From a virus, in the IMG/VR virus record IMGVR_UViG_3300031910_000474: a DNA stretch of 44,425 nucleotides, one strand, 5' to 3'. Below are positions 24,814 to 44,334 of this stretch, one piece after another. Both the position numbers and the translations under genes were made by a program. The notes beneath the pieces were generated by a model. It saw nothing but the letters and a program-made list of their open reading frames with translations, was not told where the DNA came from and did no database searches. Position 1 is the stretch's first letter, and every line of letters begins with the position of its first letter.

Positions 24814-24917
24814 AGCATGAGTTTTCGTTACGAGCAGGTGAGGGGCGCCTCGGGTTGCGATCCCAGGCTCGCCGCCTTCAGGCGGCTATCCAGCGCCCAC
24901 ACTGAGGCGAGAATACC

Positions 24918-26264
24918 ATGAGCTTTCGCTACGACGGACGCGTGCAGGATATTGTAGGCAACGCCATTGCCGGCGCTTCGATCGCCGTCCTTACGCAGCC
25001 CGCAAACACCACGACGCAGCCCGGCTCGCCGCTTGCCACGATCTACAACGGGCCGAACACGGTTTCGAACACGGTGTCGACGGCCTCGTGGTCGAACCTT
25101 ACGGCGCAACTGACTTTCGTGCTCGGCCTCGCACCGAGCGCCGACGTGATCCCGGGAAACTTTCTCGGCATCGCGGGCGTAACGCCCGTCGGCTATAACG
25201 GAATTTGGCAGATCGTCAGCGTGGCAGGCACGACGGTCGTCGTCACCACGCCGTACACGCTTGCCGCGATCGCGAACCCCGGCACGTATCTAGCAGGCGG
25301 CACCGTCACGACGTCGATCATGCCGAACCCGTTCCCGACCGATACACTCGGAAATTTTTTCTTCTATGCCGCAGCGGGGATTTACACGGTTCAGATTTAC
25401 GATTCGCTTTCGCGCATTGCGCCGCTCGTGCTCGCCGATCAGAACGTGACCGCAGGCAGCGGAACGGGCAGTGTAACAAGCGTTGCGCTGACGGTGCCCG
25501 GGGAGTTCAGCGTTTCGGGCAGCCCGATTACCACGTCCGGCACGCTCGCCGTCACGAAGGCAAATCAGAATCCGAACCTCGTTTATGCAGGCCCCACAGG
25601 CGGCGGCGCAGCTGCACCGACTTTCCGGGCGCTTGTCGCAGCGGACATGCCTGCAGGAACGGGCACTGTAACAAGTATTTCACACACGCTCACGGTGCCG
25701 CCGATCTTCAGCGCAAGCGTGGGCGGTTCGCCGATCACGACAAGCGGCACGCTGGCCGATGCGGTTTCACTTGTCAGTCAGAACGCGAACCTCGTGTGGG
25801 CAGGGCCGTCGTCAGGCGCTGCCGCGAATCCGACCTTCCGTTCGCTTGTCGCGCAGGATTTGCCGTTCACCACGACGACGCTCAGTTCGGCGCAAATCCT
25901 CGCGCTGCAAACTACGCCCGTTACGCTTGTCGCCGCACCAGGCGTCGGATTCACGATCGTGCCGACGAGGATCGTGATCAAGTTTTTCGGCGGCGGCATT
26001 GCCTACACGGACGCGGGCGGCGCGGTAAGTTTCGCGAACGGCTCGATGAGCGCGGCGCTGGCAGCCAATGCCATTTTCCTTGTCACCGTATCGCCGAACA
26101 GGCGCATACAGGTTTTCCCGTGGCCGGGCGCAACCGACACGGCGGCTAATCCGCCCTCGGACGACAATGCCGCGCTCACGATTCAGAAGGCGACAAACCA
26201 ATTCGCCGCCGGGAATGGAACGGCGACGATCTTAGTCTGGTACTACATCGTACCCACGACGTAA
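24918..26264 (+). CDS. Tail fibre protein (448 aa)
   Basis: Tandem ~65-aa repeat (G)TG.VTS(V/I)...P..FS.S.GGSPITTSGTLA......QNANLV(Y/W)AGP..G.AA.PTFR.LVA.D(M/L)P (aa 182-316), typical of phage fibres. The C-terminal domain is paralogous to 7062..7592. Confidence 0.75.
   Translation: MSFRYDGRVQDIVGNAIAGASIAVLTQPANTTTQPGSPLATIYNGPNTVSNTVSTASWSNLTAQLTFVLGLAPSADVIPGNFLGIAGVTPVGYNGIWQIVSVAGTTVVVTTPYTLAAIANPGTYLAGGTVTTSIMPNPFPTDTLGNFFFYAAAGIYTVQIYDSLSRIAPLVLADQNVTAGSGTGSVTSVALTVPGEFSVSGSPITTSGTLAVTKANQNPNLVYAGPTGGGAAAPTFRALVAADMPAGTGTVTSISHTLTVPPIFSASVGGSPITTSGTLADAVSLVSQNANLVWAGPSSGAAANPTFRSLVAQDLPFTTTTLSSAQILALQTTPVTLVAAPGVGFTIVPTRIVIKFFGGGIAYTDAGGAVSFANGSMSAALAANAIFLVTVSPNRRIQVFPWPGATDTAANPPSDDNAALTIQKATNQFAAGNGTATILVWYYIVPTT
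25461..25865 (+). repeat. Intragenic tandem repeat (2 units) in the tail fibre gene
   Basis: Two consecutive diverged units, seen in the translation and in the DNA (GGAACGGGCA(G/C)TGTAACAAG...). Confidence 0.7.
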
Positions 26265-26672: not shown

Positions 26673-26680
26673 TCTGAACC

Positions 26681-29600
26681 GTGGACAACGTTCTCGAAAC
26701 GAACGGCGTCCCGCTGACCGTTTTCGGCGGGGCAGTTCCCGAACTCGCACCCGAGGACCTGCCCGAAGGGGCCTCGCCGTTCAATCAAGATTGCGACTTT
26801 AACCCGGGATCCGTCTTCACACGCGGCGGTCGCACGAATCAGTATTATTACCAGAATCTTTTTTACGACAAGATCACGCAGTTCGCCCGCAACGCGCCCG
26901 GGCCGTTCTTCCCGAACGAAGTCGCGTGGATTGCGCCGCAGAACGTGCAGAACAACACGCCGGGCAGTTACGCCGTCGCGCAATTGAATCAGGGCGTGAA
27001 CATTTCGAACGTCGTGCAGTTCAAACAGGTGCAAATCAACACGACGACGACGACGTTTACCGCAGCCTTCGATAATCCAGTCGCGGCCGGTTCGGCGGTG
27101 TTCATCGCGCTGTTCATTCACGATTCGAACGGTTCGGTCGAGGGCGTGAACTGCACCGCCTGCGTCGACAACCGCGCGCAAACCGCCGATCACATCGTCG
27201 CGAACCTTTCAACGCCGAATAATAACGACATCTGTTTCTCGATCGGCTACAAGTCCGCACTCGGCGGAAATCAGTCGTACACCTTCACTCTTCAGACAAA
27301 CGCCGCTGGAACCCTCACCGCTTCAAACTACGCCTATTGTCTTTGTGAAATCATTGCCACGCAAAACGCGGCCAGTGCCGATCCGTTCGATCAAATGGTT
27401 GCCGAAGTTGTTTCAACCGTCACGGGATTCGGCGCGGGCCTCGTCACCACGGTGACGGCGAACGAGCTCATGCTGTCCGTCGTGCAATGCACCGGGGCGT
27501 CATGGAACGGCTTTTTGATGCCGTCGCAGTATTACTTCACGGGCGGCAATGAACCGCTGCAACGCGTTATTTCGACGATCGCAACACCGACTGGAAACTT
27601 TCAGGAACAGGCTTTGATCGGTCGGAATATCCCGACGAATCCAGGCGCTGCCGTACCGATCGCAAACTGTGGTCCCGTCACGTCCGTCACCGGGCTTGTG
27701 GTGTGGATCACGCTCAAGATGACGAACGCGAACGCCATCGGCACGCCCGGAATTCTGGCGCTCGATTCGGTCGTTGCCGGCTCAGGCAGCGGCGGCACCA
27801 CGATCAGCTTTCCCCCGATCACCACGGCGCACGACAACGAAATCATTTACCTGTTCGCCGCGTACACCACGAACTTCGGCTATCCCATCATTGCGCCGCC
27901 CGAAGGTTATGTCGGCTCGAGCCTGAACGGCGGAAACGGTTTCGTCGGCTGCATGTTTGCGCCGACTGCCGGAACCTATTCGCCGCCTGCCGCGACCGTG
28001 GCCGCTGGCGGCTCGAGTGGCGCAATCGCGGCGTCGATCAGTTTCAGCGTTGCAGGCCCCCTCGCGCAGCCTGCGTTGCTGCAGATGATCGGCAACGGAT
28101 CGAACATTCCGGCAGGGCCGCAATTGTTCACGTGGCCGAATCCCGTCACGCCGGGCAGCACGATCATCTGCATGTTCTCGAGCGGCTTCGCGACAGGCGG
28201 GTTTGCCGGGCCGTGCTCGGATACCGTCGGCGATGTTTTCACGCCCGTAGTGCAAAGCGCCGCCACGAGCACCGGAGTTCCGCCGCATAACTTCGTCGCC
28301 TTGACGATCAACATCTGCCAGAACACGATCGGCGGCAACACCGACATGACGGTGCAGGGCGGCGGCGCGGGCCTCGGCGGCGCGCAGTTCATCGCCATTG
28401 AGATCGCTCCGGGCGCGCTGGCCATTTCGCCGACGCCGCATTCCGAAATCCTCGCCGCGAGTAACTTCGGTTTTAACTTCCCGTTGACGCAGCCGATCCT
28501 CGGCATGGAGATCGAAGTTAGCGGGCACCAGTCGACGCTCGATCCGAGCGCCACGATCAGCGTCACCACAAACCAGACGGGATCCTCGACGGTCGTGACG
28601 CAAATGCCGGGATCGGACGGCACGATCACGATCGGCAATCCACTCAGCAATTTCGGGCTCGCGCTGACGCCCGCCATGCTGAACGATCCGGGGTTCACGG
28701 TCGAGATCCAGGCGAACGAGTCGAACCTGACGACCGCCGCGACGTTCGACCTGTACGCGGTACGTGTGCGCGTATTCGTCACGCCGTTTCCGCCGTGCAA
28801 TTTTGACTGGATCAAAACTTACGAGCAAACGGATGGCGAGATCGATACGCTCGTGCTCGACGCGAACGGCATTCTGTGGGACGAAGATGTGGACACGAAC
28901 CCCGGGGTGCTCAATTCCATTTTCACGACGATCCTAAAAAACACTTACGCGAAATCCGTCACGTTCGACGACATCGAATACATTGCGTTTTCGAACCTTG
29001 TGAACGGCACCGACGTGCCGCGGCAGTGGAACGGCACGAACCTCGACCGTATTTCGATGGTCGGCCCGGGCGCAAAGCCGAGCGCGAGCTCCGCAGGCAG
29101 CGGCTCGAACACGTTCGCAATTCAGAACACCACGCAGCAGTCGCCCGTTGAGATCCGCCGCATCGCGTGGGGCACGGTGAATTCGCCGAGCGTTTCAACT
29201 CCCGGCAATCTTCTCGTCGTGTTCGGGCAGGGCCGTCAGGTCAGCCCGCCCGCGCCGCCGCCCGACTATTCGACTTTGAAACCGTACACGCCGACCTTCG
29301 GCTCGGGCACGCATGTCGTGCTGTCGGGCATTCCGAGCCCGTTTCCGAAAAAAGGCGGCGGCACGCTGCCCTACAACATAAACGGAAACTATCTCGTCGG
29401 GACGGTGCAGTTCGGCAATGTCGGCGGAAACGAAAACTGCCCGACGTTCACGCTGCCCAGTCCGACGACTACATGGGCGTATTCGGACGACTTCGGCTCA
29501 GGTCAAGCGCCTGGAGTTCCGCCGCCGTCCGGCTGGTTTTACCAGTCGTGTATCGCAACCGTGACGATGCAGGTCGGGCTGCCGAACGTCGGCCCGGGAA

Positions 29601-32125
29601 GCCAGATCACGATCTCGGGCACGGGCGGCTCGCCGCCTTCCGGCTACGATGGCACATGGACCGTGCTGCAGGCCCCGAACGCGGTTCAAATGACGATCAA
29701 CTCGACGCAATTGACTGCGGCGACGTCGATCGCGACTTACTCGTTCACGCTGCTGCCGGGGTTCGTGAACCCGCCGCAGCCCGGGCAGGTCGTCACCATC
29801 ACGAATTGCGAGAATCAGGCCCCCGGGGATCCGAGCTCGCCTTTCAATGGCACCTTCACGATCGCCTCGGTCGGCGGCGGGCAGTTTACGGTCAGCATTG
29901 CCCACGCGACCGATATACCCCTCGCAACCGAGTCCGGCGAGGTGCCCACGCCGACGGCAGTCATTGCCGGAACGATCTTCACCTTCGACGCTGGGGTCAT
30001 AGTGGCGTCAGGGAGTCCCGTAAGCGGCGGAACTATCACGCAGCAGGGACAAGTCGCGACGGGGCCCCGGAAGGTGTGCTATTCGTTCCTGACGCGCTCA
30101 GGCTATATCACACAGCCGTCGCCGATCGCGATGACGAACATCACGACCTCGGCCGGCTCGATCACCGTGTCCGGGCTCGCCACGGGGCCGTCAAACGTCG
30201 TCGCCCGGATCGTGTCCTTCACCGGGGCAAACGGCGGCAATTTCTTCTATATCCCGCAGCCTGTATACGTTACGGCTGGCGGCGTCACCACGAAGAACGA
30301 TTCGACGATCGTGAACGACAACACGAGCACGAGCGCCACGTTCAGTTTTTCGGACGCTGTGCTGCTGTCCGCGACCGCGATCGACATCACGGGAAACAAC
30401 CTTTTCAACGACATCGAGCTCGGATCCTGCAGAGGAATCGTGACTTACGCCTCGCGGCTGTTCGCGTGGTCGGAGCAAAACAAGATCACGAACCTGCGGA
30501 ACTGGAGTTTCGACGGGGGAGTCGGCGGCACGACCGTCGGCGGCCTGTCGACCACGTACCCCCTCGGCTGGACACTCGACGCCACAAACGGCGCAGGCGG
30601 CTCGGTGTTCCAGAATTCCCAAGTGTTCGGCTGGTGCTATCAAATTCAAAACAATACGGGTTCGACGCAGGCGACTTACGGCATGCTGACGCAGCCCGCC
30701 TATCAGGACGAGTTCGGGGTTGCGATCGTGAACGCGTCCGTCGCCTATTCGGTGCGCCTGTGCGCGCTTGTGACGCCCGTGCCGCTTTCGGGAAACCTCG
30801 TGGTCGATCTGGTGTCGAATGGCGTTGCGGTCGGAACGTTTTCGCTGCCGCTTGCGAGCATGACGAACTTCATGCAGATATACACGGGCACGCTGCTAAC
30901 AAACGTGCTCGCGCCCGTGCCGCCGGATCTTACGCTGCGGATTTGGGCGCAGAACATCACGAACGGCACGACGATTCTGATCGATCGCATTGAACCGTTC
31001 GCAACGTTCAATCCCGTGCTGTCGACCGCCTTCAAAGCGTCTTACGCAAACAATCAGGAAGCCTTCGATCAGGTCACGGGCGTGTGCGGCCCGGCGCAGA
31101 ATTCGCAGCCGATCAACGGCGGCGCGGTGCTGTTCGATCTGCTGTACGCACTCAAGGAAAAATCATGGTATTCGACTTCGGACAATGGCGTCACCGAGCC
31201 GTACCAGTGGAACTGGAAAGAAGTTTCGAATAAAGTCGGCGCGATCGGGATCCACAGTTACGACTACGGCGAAGGCTGGATGGTCGCGGCGAACCGTCAG
31301 GGCGGGTATTTTTTCGAAGGCGGCGAGCCGATCAAGATCACGCAGGAAATTCAACCGCTGTGGGACATGATCAACTGGAACTACGGGTACACGATATGGA
31401 TGAGAAACGATCCCGAACAGAAAAGAATGACGATCGGAATTCCGATTCGGACGCCGAATGCCTACATGCCGGAATTCCCCGTGAACGCGAACCCGACGTC
31501 GCCGAACGTCGTCCTGATGTGCAACTATCGCGAATTGAACACGGGCGCGGCGCTCGCGCAGACAGGCCCGATCCGCAGCACGTATATGGGCCGACTGATG
31601 TCGCCGGAACCCGCGAGGAAATGGAGTTTCTGGAACATCTTATGTCCCTATTCGGATTACATTTCCCGGGCGAACGGACAGTGGCCGCAATTCTTCTGCA
31701 CCGGATACAATGACTCGAAAATTTTCCAGCTGCTCGCGTCGACGCTGAATGACGACGGCACAGCGATCAATTCGTTCTGGATCAGTTACGGGTTCGTGAA
31801 ACCGGAAGCCGCCGACGCAAAGGGCCTCGGGCTGTTCCGAGTCGAATTCCCATACTTCACCATGCTGTGCATCGGCAGCGGCACCGTGAATACTTATGTT
31901 TACCCCGAATCACCCCAAAATCGGCCTTATGTTCTCGAGTCGGAAATTCTCCCCGCCATCACGCAGGGCGATCTTGAGATCGGCGTCAACATCAAAGGCC
32001 AGCGGTTTTTTGTGAGAGTGGGAACGAACGCCGTCGGAAATTTCTTCCGGCTTTCGAAGATGGTCGTTCCACTCGTGACTGACAGCTGGAGTCCGATTCG
32101 CGGATGGAATCAAATTACCGCTTGA
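26681..32125 (+). CDS. Giant tail-associated protein (1814 aa)
   Basis: Single uninterrupted GTG-start ORF covering about 12% of the genome. T/G/S/V-rich and beta-like. The function is inferred only from size and position; it could be a nozzle or tail-tubular-B analog fused to adhesin-like regions. Confidence 0.6.
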   Translation: MDNVLETNGVPLTVFGGAVPELAPEDLPEGASPFNQDCDFNPGSVFTRGGRTNQYYYQNLFYDKITQFARNAPGPFFPNEVAWIAPQNVQNNTPGSYAVAQLNQGVNISNVVQFKQVQINTTTTTFTAAFDNPVAAGSAVFIALFIHDSNGSVEGVNCTACVDNRAQTADHIVANLSTPNNNDICFSIGYKSALGGNQSYTFTLQTNAAGTLTASNYAYCLCEIIATQNAASADPFDQMVAEVVSTVTGFGAGLVTTVTANELMLSVVQCTGASWNGFLMPSQYYFTGGNEPLQRVISTIATPTGNFQEQALIGRNIPTNPGAAVPIANCGPVTSVTGLVVWITLKMTNANAIGTPGILALDSVVAGSGSGGTTISFPPITTAHDNEIIYLFAAYTTNFGYPIIAPPEGYVGSSLNGGNGFVGCMFAPTAGTYSPPAATVAAGGSSGAIAASISFSVAGPLAQPALLQMIGNGSNIPAGPQLFTWPNPVTPGSTIICMFSSGFATGGFAGPCSDTVGDVFTPVVQSAATSTGVPPHNFVALTINICQNTIGGNTDMTVQGGGAGLGGAQFIAIEIAPGALAISPTPHSEILAASNFGFNFPLTQPILGMEIEVSGHQSTLDPSATISVTTNQTGSSTVVTQMPGSDGTITIGNPLSNFGLALTPAMLNDPGFTVEIQANESNLTTAATFDLYAVRVRVFVTPFPPCNFDWIKTYEQTDGEIDTLVLDANGILWDEDVDTNPGVLNSIFTTILKNTYAKSVTFDDIEYIAFSNLVNGTDVPRQWNGTNLDRISMVGPGAKPSASSAGSGSNTFAIQNTTQQSPVEIRRIAWGTVNSPSVSTPGNLLVVFGQGRQVSPPAPPPDYSTLKPYTPTFGSGTHVVLSGIPSPFPKKGGGTLPYNINGNYLVGTVQFGNVGGNENCPTFTLPSPTTTWAYSDDFGSGQAPGVPPPSGWFYQSCIATVTMQVGLPNVGPGSQITISGTGGSPPSGYDGTWTVLQAPNAVQMTINSTQLTAATSIATYSFTLLPGFVNPPQPGQVVTITNCENQAPGDPSSPFNGTFTIASVGGGQFTVSIAHATDIPLATESGEVPTPTAVIAGTIFTFDAGVIVASGSPVSGGTITQQGQVATGPRKVCYSFLTRSGYITQPSPIAMTNITTSAGSITVSGLATGPSNVVARIVSFTGANGGNFFYIPQPVYVTAGGVTTKNDSTIVNDNTSTSATFSFSDAVLLSATAIDITGNNLFNDIELGSCRGIVTYASRLFAWSEQNKITNLRNWSFDGGVGGTTVGGLSTTYPLGWTLDATNGAGGSVFQNSQVFGWCYQIQNNTGSTQATYGMLTQPAYQDEFGVAIVNASVAYSVRLCALVTPVPLSGNLVVDLVSNGVAVGTFSLPLASMTNFMQIYTGTLLTNVLAPVPPDLTLRIWAQNITNGTTILIDRIEPFATFNPVLSTAFKASYANNQEAFDQVTGVCGPAQNSQPINGGAVLFDLLYALKEKSWYSTSDNGVTEPYQWNWKEVSNKVGAIGIHSYDYGEGWMVAANRQGGYFFEGGEPIKITQEIQPLWDMINWNYGYTIWMRNDPEQKRMTIGIPIRTPNAYMPEFPVNANPTSPNVVLMCNYRELNTGAALAQTGPIRSTYMGRLMSPEPARKWSFWNILCPYSDYISRANGQWPQFFCTGYNDSKIFQLLASTLNDDGTAINSFWISYGFVKPEAADAKGLGLFRVEFPYFTMLCIGSGTVNTYVYPESPQNRPYVLESEILPAITQGDLEIGVNIKGQRFFVRVGTNAVGNFFRLSKMVVPLVTDSWSPIRGWNQITA

Positions 32126-39052: not shown

Positions 39053-39328
39053 ATGCAAATCGGCGATCCGATCAAAGTAACGGGAACGGTGAAGGACATC
39101 GTGCACGCAAAGGACACGAACATCGTGTCGATACTCATGCAGTCGGACGATCTTCCGGGCGCGCCGGGCCGCGAATTCTGGTTTCCAGAGGGACAGGTGC
39201 AGGACAATCCGCCCCCGCAGCCTGCGACTGCGACTGCGACTGCGCCCGCAACGGAGCATGCGGCAAAGCATGCGGCTGAGCCTGCGCCAAAGCACACGCC
39301 AGCGCCGCACGTCGCGCACGGTTCGTGA
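39053..39328 (+). CDS. Hypothetical protein with a P/A/H-rich tail (91 aa)
   Basis: GGAGGA RBS and ATG 39053. This is the last plus-strand gene before the convergent terminator. Confidence 0.55.
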   Translation: MQIGDPIKVTGTVKDIVHAKDTNIVSILMQSDDLPGAPGREFWFPEGQVQDNPPPQPATATATAPATEHAAKHAAEPAPKHTPAPHVAHGS

Positions 39329-39366
39329 TAGAGTCGCCGTAATCTACGTTCTATCTTTTTTGCTCT

Positions 39367-39408
39367 AAGGGCCCCGTCGTCATGGCGACTGCGGGGCCTT
39401 TTTTATTT
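39367..39408 (+). terminator. Rho-independent terminator of the rightward late operon
   Basis: GGCCCCG (39370-39376) pairs with CGGGGCC (39392-39398), followed by TTTTTTATTT. Lies at the convergence point with the leftward operon. Confidence 0.75.
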
Positions 39409-40567
39409 CGAGGTATGCTTCGATGAACGCGACGGCTTGCGGCGCACAGCACGCATTCCCCGCTCCGCGCAGGACGCCCACTCGTCCGGCAGTCCGAGCA
39501 GCCAAAGGGAAAATCTCGGGTTCAGCAGGAACGAGCCGGAAGCGTCCGTCGGTGCAGCGGTGCTGCCGAGCTCCGTGCCAGAAAGATGCGCGAGGCGCGG
39601 CAATTGGTCGAGCCGCTTGCGATCCTCGGTTTGCTGCGTCATTCCGGGCGTGTCTTTCCAGTCGCGGCTTGCGGGCGTCGTCCAGGCTGCGACTTGATTG
39701 TGCAGGCCGTCCGGTTTCCCCCGATGCGCCCCGATATATTCCGAATCTTCCGCTCGTGGTGTCGCCCAACTGGCCGCCCTCGTCAGCGAGTTGTATTCCC
39801 CGCTCGCCCGCGTCCCGTTGTTTGGGTCGTCGCAGTTCGGCGTCGGCCACCCTGCCAACTGTGCTGTTTGTCCCACGGTCAATCCGAATCCGTTGTTGTG
39901 ATATTTTTCCCGACTTACGGCCCGGCGCTGTTTCCACGTCGTATCGCTGTCGTTTTGCGGGCCCGCGTTCGGCGTCGGCCACCCAGTCAAAAGCGCCTTG
40001 TCGTTCAGGCAGAACGTTCTCCCCTGTCCGCGTTGCGGTTTCCCGCCCCGGTCGTCCCTGCCCGTTGCTGTCGGCCACGAAGTACAATCGCTGGCGGATG
40101 TGCGGCGCGCCGACGCCCGCTGCGCAGGTATCGAGCGCCCCGACGGCGTAACCCTCGTTTTCCAGATCAGCCGAAACAGTGTCGAACCACGCGAGTCCGT
40201 CTTTTCCCGATACTTGTTCGCCAAAAATGACGTCAGGGCGAAACTCTCTAATGAGCCGGAACCATGCAGGCCAAAGGTGACGGTGATCGCTAAAGCCTTC
40301 CCGGTTCCCGCTTGCACTGAAACCTTGGCAGGGACAGGATCCACTCCACACGGGAGAATCATCTGGCCATCCAGCCGTTCTAAGGGCGTAACTCCACACG
40401 CCGATCCCGGCGAAGAAATGGTGCTGCGTGTAGCCTTTGAGATCCGCGACGGTGACTTCTTCGATCGATCTTTCATCGATTTCTCCCGGGCATATAAGTT
40501 TAGCGGCGACGAGCTCACGAAGCCACGCCGCCGCAAAGGGATCGTTTTCGTTGAAATAGGCGGTCAC
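39380..40567 (-). CDS. DNA (cytosine-5) methyltransferase. The reading frame is uncertain downstream of about 40070 (see findings).
   Basis: YFNENDPFAAAWLRELV, FFAGIGVWS, SCPCQGFS (PCQ catalytic motif), FGEQV and GAPHIRQRLYF. The likely start is GTG 40567, in a GTGA overlap with the upstream stop. The target-recognition part reads better in the overlapping ORF 39403..40536. Confidence 0.75.
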   Translation of the reverse strand: MTAYFNENDPFAAAWLRELVAAKLICPGEIDERSIEEVTVADLKGYTQHHFFAGIGVWSYALRTAGWPDDSPVWSGSCPCQGFSASGNREGFSDHRHLWPAWFRLIREFRPDVIFGEQVSGKDGLAWFDTVSADLENEGYAVGALDTCAAGVGAPHIRQRLYFVADSNGQGRPGRETATRTGENVLPERQGAFDWVADAERGPAKRQRYDVETAPGRKSGKISQQRIRIDRGTNSTVGRVADAELRRPKQRDAGERGIQLADEGGQLGDTTSGRFGIYRGASGETGRPAQSSRSLDDARKPRLERHARNDAANRGSQAARPIAAPRASFWHGARQHRCTDGRFRLVPAEPEIFPLAARTAGRVGVLRGAGNACCAPQAVAFIEAYLEIKKAPQSP

Positions 40568-40884
40568 AGGTCGAACGCCGCCATGCAGTTCGTCGAGCAC
40601 CAGTACATTCCGAAGCGCGGAAAATTGCATTCGCAATCGCGCTTCACGATCTTGTCGCACTGCTGACAGGTGTGCGAATGCGGCTCGCCATGCAGGCCGA
40701 GCGCGTCACGCGCAATTCCGACGGCCTGCGTTTCGGACTCTTCTTCGATGTCCGAAATCTTTGTGAGCGCCTTGCGGTACTCTTCAATGACGCGCAGGTA
40801 CTTCGACACGTCACCTTCAAGCGCCTCGATGCGCACTTCCTGTTTGCGGATCAGTCCGCGTGCTGCGCTGATTCCGCCGCTCAT
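40564..40884 (-). CDS. Coiled-coil protein with a C-terminal FCS/MYM-like zinc finger (106 aa)
   Basis: ATG 40884 in an ATGA overlap. HTCQQCDK...CEC...YWCSTNCMAAF. Confidence 0.6.
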   Translation of the reverse strand: MSGGISAARGLIRKQEVRIEALEGDVSKYLRVIEEYRKALTKISDIEEESETQAVGIARDALGLHGEPHSHTCQQCDKIVKRDCECNFPRFGMYWCSTNCMAAFDL

Positions 40885-41333
40885 GACCGCCGCCTGTTCT
40901 GCGCCCACACGGCGACGAGCACGTCGGCGATCTCGCTGACCGCCTGCCGTTCGATCTCGGACTGTTCGGGCGCAATGTCGCCGGATTCCCGATCGCGCAT
41001 AACTTCGGTTGCGACGTTCAGTTCGATGAAGTCGCTGATCACTCGGGCGATCGACTCATTGAACGAAGGAAACATGCCCTCGCCGACCGCGAATTCCATC
41101 AGTTGCTGGCAGGCTGCGGCTTCGTCGGCGGTATCGAAAGCATATTCGTCATTGCAGATAGGCACGACGTACTTGATCCGCCCGTCGATCTCGGCCATGT
41201 AGGCATAAAGGTTTCCGCGCTCGGCTTCGAAAATGACGCCGCGCGTCGGTTCGTCGAATCCCGTCGACACGCCGTGATCGTCAAGGTTCGAAACTTCGCG
41301 CACGCTGCGCCATGCTGGTTTGATAATGTTCAC
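40881..41333 (-). CDS. Hypothetical acidic protein (150 aa)
   Basis: GTG start in a GTGA overlap. Confidence 0.55.
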   Translation of the reverse strand: MNIIKPAWRSVREVSNLDDHGVSTGFDEPTRGVIFEAERGNLYAYMAEIDGRIKYVVPICNDEYAFDTADEAAACQQLMEFAVGEGMFPSFNESIARVISDFIELNVATEVMRDRESGDIAPEQSEIERQAVSEIADVLVAVWAQNRRRS

Positions 41334-43221: not shown

Positions 43222-44334
43222 ATGCCCGAAAAAACGGCCCTCGAGAAGCCGCAATCTATTTTCTCGATGCTCGACTCCGCAGACTTCAAAGGGAAACTTG
43301 CGAAGGCGCTGCCGGAAACGCTGAAAGTCGAACGCGTGGTGCAACTGGCGTACACGCTGCTTCGCAAGAATCCGACGCTCGCGAAGTGTTCGCCCCTATC
43401 GATCCTCGCCTCGCTCGCCGACTCTTCGGCGCTCGGGTTCGAGATCGACGATGTGCTCGGCCTAGCATATCTCGTTCCGTTCAAAGGTGAATGCAAACTG
43501 ATCGTCGGTTATCGCGGCTTTGCCGAGCTCATGTATCGCACGGGCCTCGTGAGTTCGATCTCGACCGAGATCGTGCGTGATACGGATCGGTTTTCGTTTT
43601 CTCTCGGAACGAAGCGGCAACTCGTGCACATTCCCGCCGGAACGCCGGCAAAAGACGGCCCGGCGAACTGGCGCGGCGCTTACGCTGCGGTGCAGTTCAT
43701 CACGGGCATGACCGACTTCGAATACCTCGACAAGGCGCACATTGAATCGGCGCGCAATCGTTCGAACGGCTGGCGGGCCTTCGAACGCGGTGACGCGAAG
43801 GATAACCCGTGGCACACGGACCCCGAAGAGATGTGGAAGAAGACGCCGATCCGGCGCATGGCGAAACGCATGCCGCGTTCGGTTGTCGACAAGCGCGGCG
43901 ATCTCATGCGGGCCGCCATGCTCGACGAATACGGCGAGAAACCCGGGCTGCTCATTCCAACCGATACAGGCTGGCAGGTGAACCCCGAACCCGAGCTCCC
44001 TGCCGCAGCCGAGCCGATCGCCCCGACGCTCGAGGCGCAATTGCAGGAATCGATCGAAGACGTCGAGCAGCGCAAGAAAAAGGTAGCCGGCAAGAACAAA
44101 AAGATCGCGCCGAAGGCTTCCGCTGACGTTCCGAAGGCGCAGATCCCGGCGAAGATCGACGACCCGTACATCACGCAGAAACAGCAAACCGACTTATACA
44201 ATTCGGCGGCGCAGGCGGGCTGGACACTCGACGAGTTCATCGAATACGTGAAGAAAAACTATAAATCGATTCGCGAGGTGCGGCAGTCGCAGTACGCGGC
44301 GCTGCTCGCGAAGGCGAAAGGAAACGCACGCTGA
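43222..44334 (+). CDS. recT: RecT-family single-strand annealing protein
   Basis: AGGAGA RBS. LAYLVPFKGECKLIVGYRGFAELMYRTGLV..I....V...D.F......H.....W.GAY.......G...F..L....I...R..S...NPW...PEEMWKKTPIRRMAKRMP. It has a long K/A/Q-rich C-terminal extension. Confidence 0.9.
   Translation: MPEKTALEKPQSIFSMLDSADFKGKLAKALPETLKVERVVQLAYTLLRKNPTLAKCSPLSILASLADSSALGFEIDDVLGLAYLVPFKGECKLIVGYRGFAELMYRTGLVSSISTEIVRDTDRFSFSLGTKRQLVHIPAGTPAKDGPANWRGAYAAVQFITGMTDFEYLDKAHIESARNRSNGWRAFERGDAKDNPWHTDPEEMWKKTPIRRMAKRMPRSVVDKRGDLMRAAMLDEYGEKPGLLIPTDTGWQVNPEPELPAAAEPIAPTLEAQLQESIEDVEQRKKKVAGKNKKIAPKASADVPKAQIPAKIDDPYITQKQQTDLYNSAAQAGWTLDEFIEYVKKNYKSIREVRQSQYAALLAKAKGNAR

Follow-up and report, generated by a model that had tools for sequence, protein, structure and literature searches.

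Long genes that overlap on the same strand are regarded as rare in bacteria and phages and are disallowed by annotation pipelines. In the Rz/Rz1 pair of phage lambda, the +1 frame of one gene wholly contains a second gene of about 60 codons (Rz1), and a single function depends on the products of both. Among C5-cytosine methyltransferases, a nested geometry is known from M.EcoHK31I, the YGGCCR-specific enzyme of Escherichia coli HK31, whose beta chain is encoded in another frame within the alpha gene and which requires both chains for activity (PMC2836561; PMC3404938). M.AquI is likewise a natural two-polypeptide C5-methyltransferase with the conserved motifs shared out between its chains (PMC3404938). 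Its subunits, however, are split sequentially, with motifs I–VIII plus some of the variable region on one chain and the rest together with motifs IX–X on the other, and are not nested in two frames. M.HhaI and M.HaeIII, both of family PF00145, are single-chain enzymes. Here we describe a locus with the gene geometry of M.EcoHK31I on the minus strand of the IMG/VR virus record IMGVR_UViG_3300031910_000474, a stretch of 44,425 nucleotides (nt) that we call the window and to which all positions refer: a gene for the catalytic chain of a C5-methyltransferase (alpha) contains, in its +1 frame, a second gene (beta). Comparative sequence analysis gives strong evidence that the locus is an intact dual-coding gene pair of about 1.1 kb, with two proteins encoded on the same strand. 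Judging from sequence, structure models and analogy, the pair probably constitutes a nested two-polypeptide C5-methyltransferase of the M.EcoHK31I kind, belonging to a large phage and prophage family.

The two overlapping reading frames and their relatives

The minus strand carries two overlapping open reading frames (ORFs), 39380..40660 (frame 1; 426 residues from the first possible start) and 39403..40536 (frame 2; 377 residues). Their +1 relation, as well as all peptide strings quoted for the two frames, had been described correctly in an initial annotation that was made from the sequence alone. The genes that we assign to them are the following:

39380..40567, minus strand: alpha, catalytic chain of a C5-cytosine methyltransferase, 395 codons, GTG start at 40567, stop TGA at 39382-39380
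39403..40476, minus strand: beta, 357 codons, nested in the +1 frame of alpha, from ATG 40476-40474 to TAA 39405-39403, frame open from 40536

Beta is located in the +1 frame relative to alpha (40567-40476 = 91) and lies wholly inside the alpha ORF on the same strand; the nested ORF takes up about 90% of its host gene. The largest +1 open span covers 88% of the alpha ORF, compared to usually 7-40% in the other long ORFs of the window. G/C-ending codons, for which the earlier hand counts come close to our computed values in all three intervals, are more frequent in frame 1 at 40138-40060 (23/26 vs 18/26 in frame 2) and more frequent in frame 2 at 40065-39960 (29/35 vs 21/34 in frame 1) and 39530-39450 (20/26 vs 14/26).

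To account for conserved methyltransferase blocks in two frames, the initial annotation had proposed a +1 frameshift (programmed or by recent decay), an assembly indel or two overlapping products. That recent decay or an indel split a single-frame methyltransferase in this particular genome is suggested by nothing beyond this first impression, and its probability is negligible: frame 1 is uninterrupted up to and including motif X, and its match to phrog_363, a family of phage methyltransferases, runs from end to end (residues 1-391 of 395, E 6.5e-70); complete phage genomes as well as 163 independent loci share the identical layout, and a relative with 98% identity (L167, see below) has the same frames. 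A pseudogene or assembly error was likewise considered as an explanation; a disruption private to this sequence was not seen, and the homologues share the two-frame layout. The initial annotation had also set an end-to-end alignment of methyltransferases with the 39380..40567 translation against the existence of homologues for the frame 2 translation with its WPTP repeats. Methyltransferases do align in this manner (phrog_363), yet the whole beta ORF has at least 1,601 database homologues and also matches the families phrog_1008 (E 4e-25) and phrog_31772. One of the homologues, the gene-caller product P0001 (357 residues, 28 contigs), is 100% identical to the window's beta from ATG 40476 onward, and the C-terminal half of beta retrieves 66 phage records by tblastn. 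In total, the alpha clusters in databases number more than 8,000 and the beta clusters at least 1,600.

The +1 arrangement of alpha and beta was found in 163/163 further loci, and no free-standing beta was seen among them. In the loci found through beta, alpha occupies frame -1 relative to beta in 83/83 cases, and in 80 IMG/VR loci fetched via beta both frames are open for 280-450 codons and the third frame for just 1-120. A separate set of 80 loci from bacterial genomes was chosen solely by two N-terminal motifs of alpha, so that beta played no part in the selection: 80/80 have a match to the beta hidden Markov model in the +1 frame (E at most 4e-60), and the +1 open span reaches a median of 91% of alpha vs 20% for the +2 span. 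The hosts include Brucella, Desulfovibrio, Edwardsiella, Xenorhabdus, Morganella and metagenome-assembled genomes of Acidobacteria. The GC content of the loci ranges from 0.52 to 0.70, with the layout holding at 0.52-0.55 (Xenorhabdus, Morganella and locus L063). Moreover, Salmonella phage SEN5, EBPR podovirus 2 and Burkholderia phage phiBtTUL1a have a beta of 280-394 codons open in the +1 frame of their methyltransferase ORF, and in RcIroh and Klebsiella N133 alpha is annotated with beta open at +1; the single annotated methyltransferase ORF in the complete genomes of SEN5, EBPR podovirus 2, RcIroh and Klebsiella N133 is frame 1. We also sought single-chain relatives that carry the WPTP region in frame with the catalytic domain; each annotated phage match that was checked proved to be nested at +1.

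Maintenance and constraint of both frames

Both frames are kept free of stop codons. This was assessed in 77 loci, with six atypical loci and one duplicate set aside, by resampling synonymous codons while keeping protein and codon usage. When alpha is resampled, 3.8 +1 stops are expected in the gene body as compared to an observed mean of 0.27, and an ATG at alpha codons 20-45 followed by a frame that is open almost to the end is present in 57/77 loci where 1.5 are expected. Upstream of alpha codon 28, 1.9 +1 stops are observed and 1.4 expected; the +1 frame is then stop-free in 77/77 loci both at alpha codons 42-100 (46.8 expected) and at codons 101-165 (16.6 expected). Resampling of beta predicts 4.3 alpha-frame stops in the variable region, none of which occurs in the 77 loci (1.5 stop-free loci expected). 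Synonymous resampling of either frame would hence leave the other with far more stops than are seen.

Constraint, measured as mean pairwise identity by codon position, alternates between the frames along the gene:

alpha nt 0-315: alpha only; alpha third positions 0.33-0.55, beta amino-acid identity 0.26-0.49
alpha nt 315-495: both frames; alpha third positions climb to 0.59-0.66
alpha nt 495-990: weak and of beta type; lowest conservation at alpha first positions, which are beta third positions
alpha nt 1035-1080: both frames, beta more strongly; identity 0.84 in beta vs 0.66 in alpha, the most conserved stretch of beta
alpha nt 1080-1125: alpha again; motif X

These data bear on the view that alpha's composition in GC-rich DNA generates the +1 ORF as an untranslated by-product and that the beta family consists of frame errors made by gene callers. 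The window indeed has other long alternative-frame and antisense ORFs, and the similarity of beta over alpha motifs I-IV is explained by alpha conservation alone. A mere by-product, however, is at odds with the segment-wise absence of +1 stops given above, with a layout that persists at GC 0.52-0.55, with a variable region whose coding signature is that of beta and not of alpha, with the higher identity of the motif-IX-like block in beta and with P0053, in which an HNH domain is fused in frame to beta. We therefore judge this view to be very improbable. Of the three explanations offered initially, only the last, two overlapping products, is supported, by the conservation and stop-free maintenance of both frames.

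The close relative L167, a contig from ENA that is 98% identical to window positions 40567-39527, resolves this pattern at short evolutionary distance. There are 21 substitutions between the two sequences: within 39986-39607, 13/13 change alpha, 7 leave the beta protein unaltered and 8 are located at third positions of beta codons; four at 40252-40234 are silent in beta and alpha-changing; and the few in the N-terminal part are silent in alpha. At 39853-39985, window and L167 differ by a 132-nt in-frame deletion that corresponds to exactly one WPTP unit and lies between two copies of GGGTGGCCGACGCCGA. Therefore, repeat number appears to change by recombination between units, with neither frame being broken. 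L167 additionally carries, at its positions 2389-2877, an HNH endonuclease ORF of 162 residues, which is situated in the beta frame directly after the motif-IX-like end and inside the alpha ORF; such an ORF is also found in locus L107. The alpha frame of L167 stays open across this insert (554 residues) and resumes with motif X. The insert resembles a homing-type insertion, here into the DNA that is best conserved at this locus.

Programmed ribosomal frameshifting would read the same DNA differently: a +1 shift after motif VIII would generate a fusion of the N-terminal part of alpha with the C-terminal part of beta, and perhaps a shift back before motif X would restore a canonical single chain. 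In line with this, motifs I-VIII (frame 1), target-recognition domain (TRD) plus motif IX (frame 2) and motif X (frame 1) follow each other in the order of a canonical enzyme, and the first WPT of beta (40077-40066) shares its DNA with the end of alpha motif VIII, FVAD. However, no conserved slippery or stimulatory sequence is apparent, as identity is 0.35-0.46 at every codon position of alpha nt 495-585, and the alpha frame remains open for about 140 further codons past the putative shift site where 4.3 stops are expected. Furthermore, beta is constrained upstream of this site, over motifs VI-VIII, alpha's W..C.D...R block is constrained within the stretch where a shifted ribosome would read beta, and beta possesses its own ATG and Shine-Dalgarno zone with a sharp 5' boundary to the stop-free frame. 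We rejected a simple +1 frameshift fusion, since there is no conserved shift site and the zero frame is open to motif X, and consider frameshifting in general to be quite improbable as the basis of this locus; the end-to-end match of frame 1 to phrog_363 and the same layout in 163/163 loci tell against the frameshift proposed initially, be it programmed or a sign of decay. A minor frameshift product may nevertheless be made besides alpha and beta. The initial annotation also conceived of a second switch back near the end of the gene: it was right in placing motif X in frame 1, but the explanation would be translation of this frame along its whole length, and not double switching by the ribosome.

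Predicted domains of alpha and beta

The sequence elements that define the two chains are listed below, all on the minus strand:

40417-40391: FxGxG-like FFAGIGVWS of alpha; residues 51-56 are FFAGIG; conserved in alignments
40333-40325: motif IV PCQ of alpha; SCPCQGFS is residues 77-84; P79, C80 and Q81 invariant; aligned to PCQ of M.HhaI
40225-40211: motif VI FGEQV of alpha; residues 115-119; aligned to ENV of M.HhaI
40111-40079: motif VIII GAPHIRQRLYF of alpha; PHIRQRLYF is residues 155-163; aligned to QKRER of M.HhaI
39583-39536: C-terminal conserved block of alpha, FWHGARQHRCTDGRFR; W330, C338, D340 and R344 invariant
39466-39434: motif X of alpha, GAGNACCAPQA; GAGNA is residues 368-372; G370 and N371 invariant
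40483..40487: Shine-Dalgarno-like GGGAG, 6 nt upstream of the beta ATG and within the conserved PGEIDER segment of alpha
40096..40251: conserved N-terminal module of beta, residues 76-127, GSTLFRLIWK..TPSGR..RAS.RRTS; overlaps alpha motifs VI-VIII
39593..40069: variable region in the beta reading; five W(P/A/T)T(P/A) units at 40077, 39981, 39849, 39768 and 39684
39525-39478: motif-IX-like block of beta, LNPRFSLWLLGLPDEW; in the alpha reading part of a conserved EPxxFPLA segment

Alpha has the catalytic large domain of M.HhaI and M.HaeIII. Its homologues begin at the same MxAYYNE position as the GTG 40567 start, its catalytic motifs (40079..40417) are invariant alignment columns, and motifs IV, VI and VIII can be aligned with residues 72-173 of M.HhaI. 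Combined in a profile, 75 alpha proteins match a canonical C5-methyltransferase profile over motifs II-VIII (hhalign, probability 98%, E 8e-14), and the match to Pfam DNA_methylase (PF00145) is confined to residues 75-172; the C-terminal part of the Pfam and PDB profiles returned no match for alpha. The C-terminus RVGVLRGAGNACCAPQAVAFIEAYL aligns with the ending RVGRLRAYGNAI..A..FIEAY that is common to all homologues. In the AlphaFold2 model, residues 1-166 are predicted with a predicted local distance difference test (pLDDT) score above 85 and match M.HaeIII, M.HhaI and the DNMTs (Foldseek; best E 6e-8, alignments of about 185 columns), disorder is predicted for residues 170-320 (pLDDT 32-50), the same stretch that cannot be aligned among homologues, and the C-terminus forms a hairpin followed by a long helix (motif X region). 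In contrast to M.HhaI and M.HaeIII, alpha is devoid of motif IX, and the small domain, comprising TRD and motif IX, is absent from both chain and model; going by the model, alpha would consist of the large domain only. A further difference concerns the N-terminus (residues 1-59, 40391-40567): in the profile alignment AYFNENDPFAAAWL falls on the canonical motif II region, and HHFFAGIGVWS is left as an insertion between motifs III and IV, so that the FxGxG-like motif stands after the motif-II-like AYFNENDP segment and not before it. The N-terminal motif order of the alpha family thus looks permuted relative to M.HhaI.

Motif VIII and motif X of alpha are joined by an R/G-rich linker (residues ~167-325), the sequence of which is not conserved but the frame of which is kept open. 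The initial annotation had regarded frame 1 below 40070 as low-complexity text; the stretch is not meaningless, however, since here and in all homologues it stays open to the conserved C-terminal block and motif X. The predicted disordered linker coincides exactly with the repeat region of beta, with the VADA and LADE strings of alpha being encoded by the same DNA as the WPTP units. The beta alignment is characterized by conserved starts, GSTLFxLTWK..TPSGR..LRAS.RRTS, two to seven WPTP units and a C-terminal GQLNPxxSRWLMGLPxxWxxC, within which the motif-IX-like consensus is LNPxxSxWLMGLPxxW. AlphaFold2 predicts the N-terminal module 76-127 as a helix plus hairpin (pLDDT 78-89).

Several observations weigh against assigning beta to the methyltransferase and against its proposed extent. 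Searches of Pfam, NCBIfam and PADLOC with beta, including all 34 members of alignment A1 at E <=10, gave no match, nor did the beta profile against PDB sequences at E <=10, and none of its at least 1,601 database homologues has a Pfam domain. The AlphaFold2 model of beta has a mean pLDDT of 59.6, being confident only at residues 76-125, 181-200 and 320-344, and Foldseek found no meaningful fold match for it. The hhalign targets were an M.HhaI sequence, residues 72-173 of which agree with the alignment of alpha to that enzyme, and a canonical alignment of 7 sequences built for the purpose: the sole part of the beta profile that aligned with M.HhaI is LNPxxSRWLMGLP, which falls onto motif IX RKLHPRECARVMGYPD (residues 270-291), and neither this alignment (E 0.17) nor that to the motif IX columns of the canonical alignment (E 0.31) is significant. 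Beta conservation over alpha motifs IV-VIII is partly a by-product of alpha conservation, and the first ~70 residues of beta, in a stretch that overlies catalytic motifs of alpha, show no constraint of their own. Because of the latter, the true beta start could lie further downstream in some lineages: constraint on beta itself begins at alpha codons 91-92, where 22 loci have ATG and 44 have TTG, and where the window has neither. Lastly, among all 164 loci alpha is interrupted with beta intact in a few copies, namely by a single in-frame stop in the linker (L042, L092) or just before motif X (L082) or by one-base frame changes (L122 and L166, i.e. PMG1); these interruptions could be sequencing errors, decay or tolerated variants.

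Such observations raise the question of whether beta is a real but separate protein, for example an anti-defence factor, a regulator or a DNA-binding protein, whose function is unrelated to methylation by alpha and which was overprinted on a tolerant part of the gene. No methyltransferase profile or structure matches beta significantly, canonical C5-methyltransferases offer no counterpart to its conserved N-terminal module, and PMG1 and the few other loci retain beta with alpha interrupted; single-chain methyltransferases with an alpha-like C-terminus may, for their part, function without a classical motif IX. An unrelated protein would, however, hardly be expected to accompany alpha in 163/163 loci without a single free-standing copy, and the best-conserved block of beta aligns just at motif IX, the motif that is absent from alpha. 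Given also an alpha model without any small domain and the precedent of M.EcoHK31I, we deem an unrelated function unlikely.

We thus favor a two-polypeptide methyltransferase, for which the following mechanism can be envisaged. Beta would be translated on its own from the alpha mRNA, starting at ATG 40476 behind GGGAG. In 61/77 loci, the +1 frame has its first ATG at alpha codons 28-40; +1 stops precede this zone and none follows it. As a scan of 39200-41000 found neither an internal sigma-70-like promoter nor a convincing internal terminator, beta translation would be explained most simply by internal initiation on the alpha mRNA. Alpha and beta would then assemble into one methyltransferase, as in M.EcoHK31I: alpha would supply the large domain that binds S-adenosylmethionine and performs catalysis, and beta would supply the small domain with target recognition and motif IX, both absent from alpha. 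Since no restriction gene adjoins the locus and its surroundings are phage genes (among them a RecT-like gene at 43222..44334), the product would most likely be an orphan phage enzyme that protects phage DNA.

The architectural likeness to M.EcoHK31I extends to gene geometry and to the split of the motifs, with the reservation that the motif IX match of the window's beta is not significant. The M.EcoHK31I beta described in 1995 reportedly has about 176 residues (vs 357 here), and that enzyme is said to be part of a restriction-modification pair and not a phage orphan. A further difference is that the published alpha is said to include the TRD, whereas here the variable region of alpha is predicted to be disordered and beta evolves in a protein-like manner there. 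This leads to a more far-reaching proposal, which we put forward tentatively and hold to be somewhat short of an even chance: the family may be a very large, hitherto unrecognized class of obligatorily two-polypeptide phage and prophage C5-methyltransferases in which the whole TRD small domain is a +1 protein made of WPTP modules, whose variable number grows and shrinks as repeats recombine, and the alpha linker of ~150 residues is a pure passenger whose frame stays open solely to connect motifs VIII and X. M.EcoHK31I already provides the architecture as such, and M.AquI is a further two-subunit C5 enzyme. In the limited collection of literature that we searched, no description of a nested ORF in this phage methyltransferase family was found; the scale, the length of the nested ORF, the repeat-built beta, the indications of a passenger linker rather than a TRD in alpha and the orphan phage context either differ from that literature or are not described in it. 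The locus likewise goes beyond lambda Rz/Rz1 in that its nested ORF has 357 codons, fills ~90% of the host gene and alternates with alpha as the constrained frame.

Surroundings, annotation and significance

The GTG start of alpha overlaps the TGA stop of an upstream ORF, 40564..40908, in a GTGA sequence that suggests translational coupling. This ORF (minus strand) ends in a Cys-rich segment, CQQCDKIVKRDCECNFPRFGMYWCSTNC, and had no PHROG or PADLOC match. At the other end, the genes run into a hairpin:

39370..39398: GC-rich hairpin between convergent transcription units; fold energy -20.8 kcal/mol (minus-strand RNA) and -27.7 kcal/mol (plus strand)

The initial annotation had placed the frame 2 stop at the foot of this hairpin and had frame 1 reading through it. 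The hairpin is real, and the beta stop TAA (39405-39403) lies just before it; the alpha stop TGA (39382-39380), in turn, lies in its loop, and the T-run, with TTTTTTATTT following, is on the plus strand. For the latter reason, the hairpin is probably mainly the terminator of the convergent plus-strand genes. Opposite alpha and beta, the plus strand has three antisense ORFs of 214-242 codons (39423..40151, 39586..40230 and 39998..40666), which are taken to be a by-product of GC-rich double coding. Elsewhere on the plus strand of the window, a 1,815-codon ORF (26678-32125) contains a 613-codon ORF (29152-30993) in a different frame, and a 452-codon ORF (24906-26264) contains one of 316 codons (25199-26149); a PHROG scan of both pairs returned one match only, of the 452-codon ORF to phrog_9625, a family of unknown function.

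In databases, the dual coding is concealed by the fact that gene callers report alpha or beta and never both; for the present sequence, solely beta is on record. Beta proteins are labeled 'hypothetical', 'DNA repair protein', 'putative metabolic enzyme' or 'DNA methyltransferase': in the record of Burkholderia phage phiBtTUL1a, beta is annotated as 'DNA repair protein' with alpha unannotated, and in PMG1 beta appears as 'DNA methyltransferase, Mte8-like'. For some copies, such as that of E. coli EC20 (L168; NZ_CP084900.1, locus 1489-2658), the Prokaryotic Genome Annotation Pipeline gives two partial pseudogenes ('missing C-terminus' and 'missing N-terminus'), a split that likely arises because the variable middle cannot be aligned. 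In other E. coli copies, 'DNA cytosine methyltransferase' alone is annotated, with no beta.

About 90% of a 1.2-kb gene is thus read in two frames, and this across prophages of Proteobacteria, Desulfovibrio, Acidobacteria and others. If target recognition is the task of beta, the specificities of thousands of orphan phage methyltransferases are being predicted from the wrong polypeptide, and M.EcoHK31I, so far a single textbook oddity, is merely the visible tip of a major class of enzymes; the locus would then also be a natural system for studying two proteins that share their DNA, with constraint passing between the frames. Should the obligate two-polypeptide class prove true, its genes would rank among the longest and most widespread pairs of overlapping same-strand genes that are known from viruses of prokaryotes, and the WPTP modules, if they act as proposed, would offer phages a modular route to new methylation specificities.

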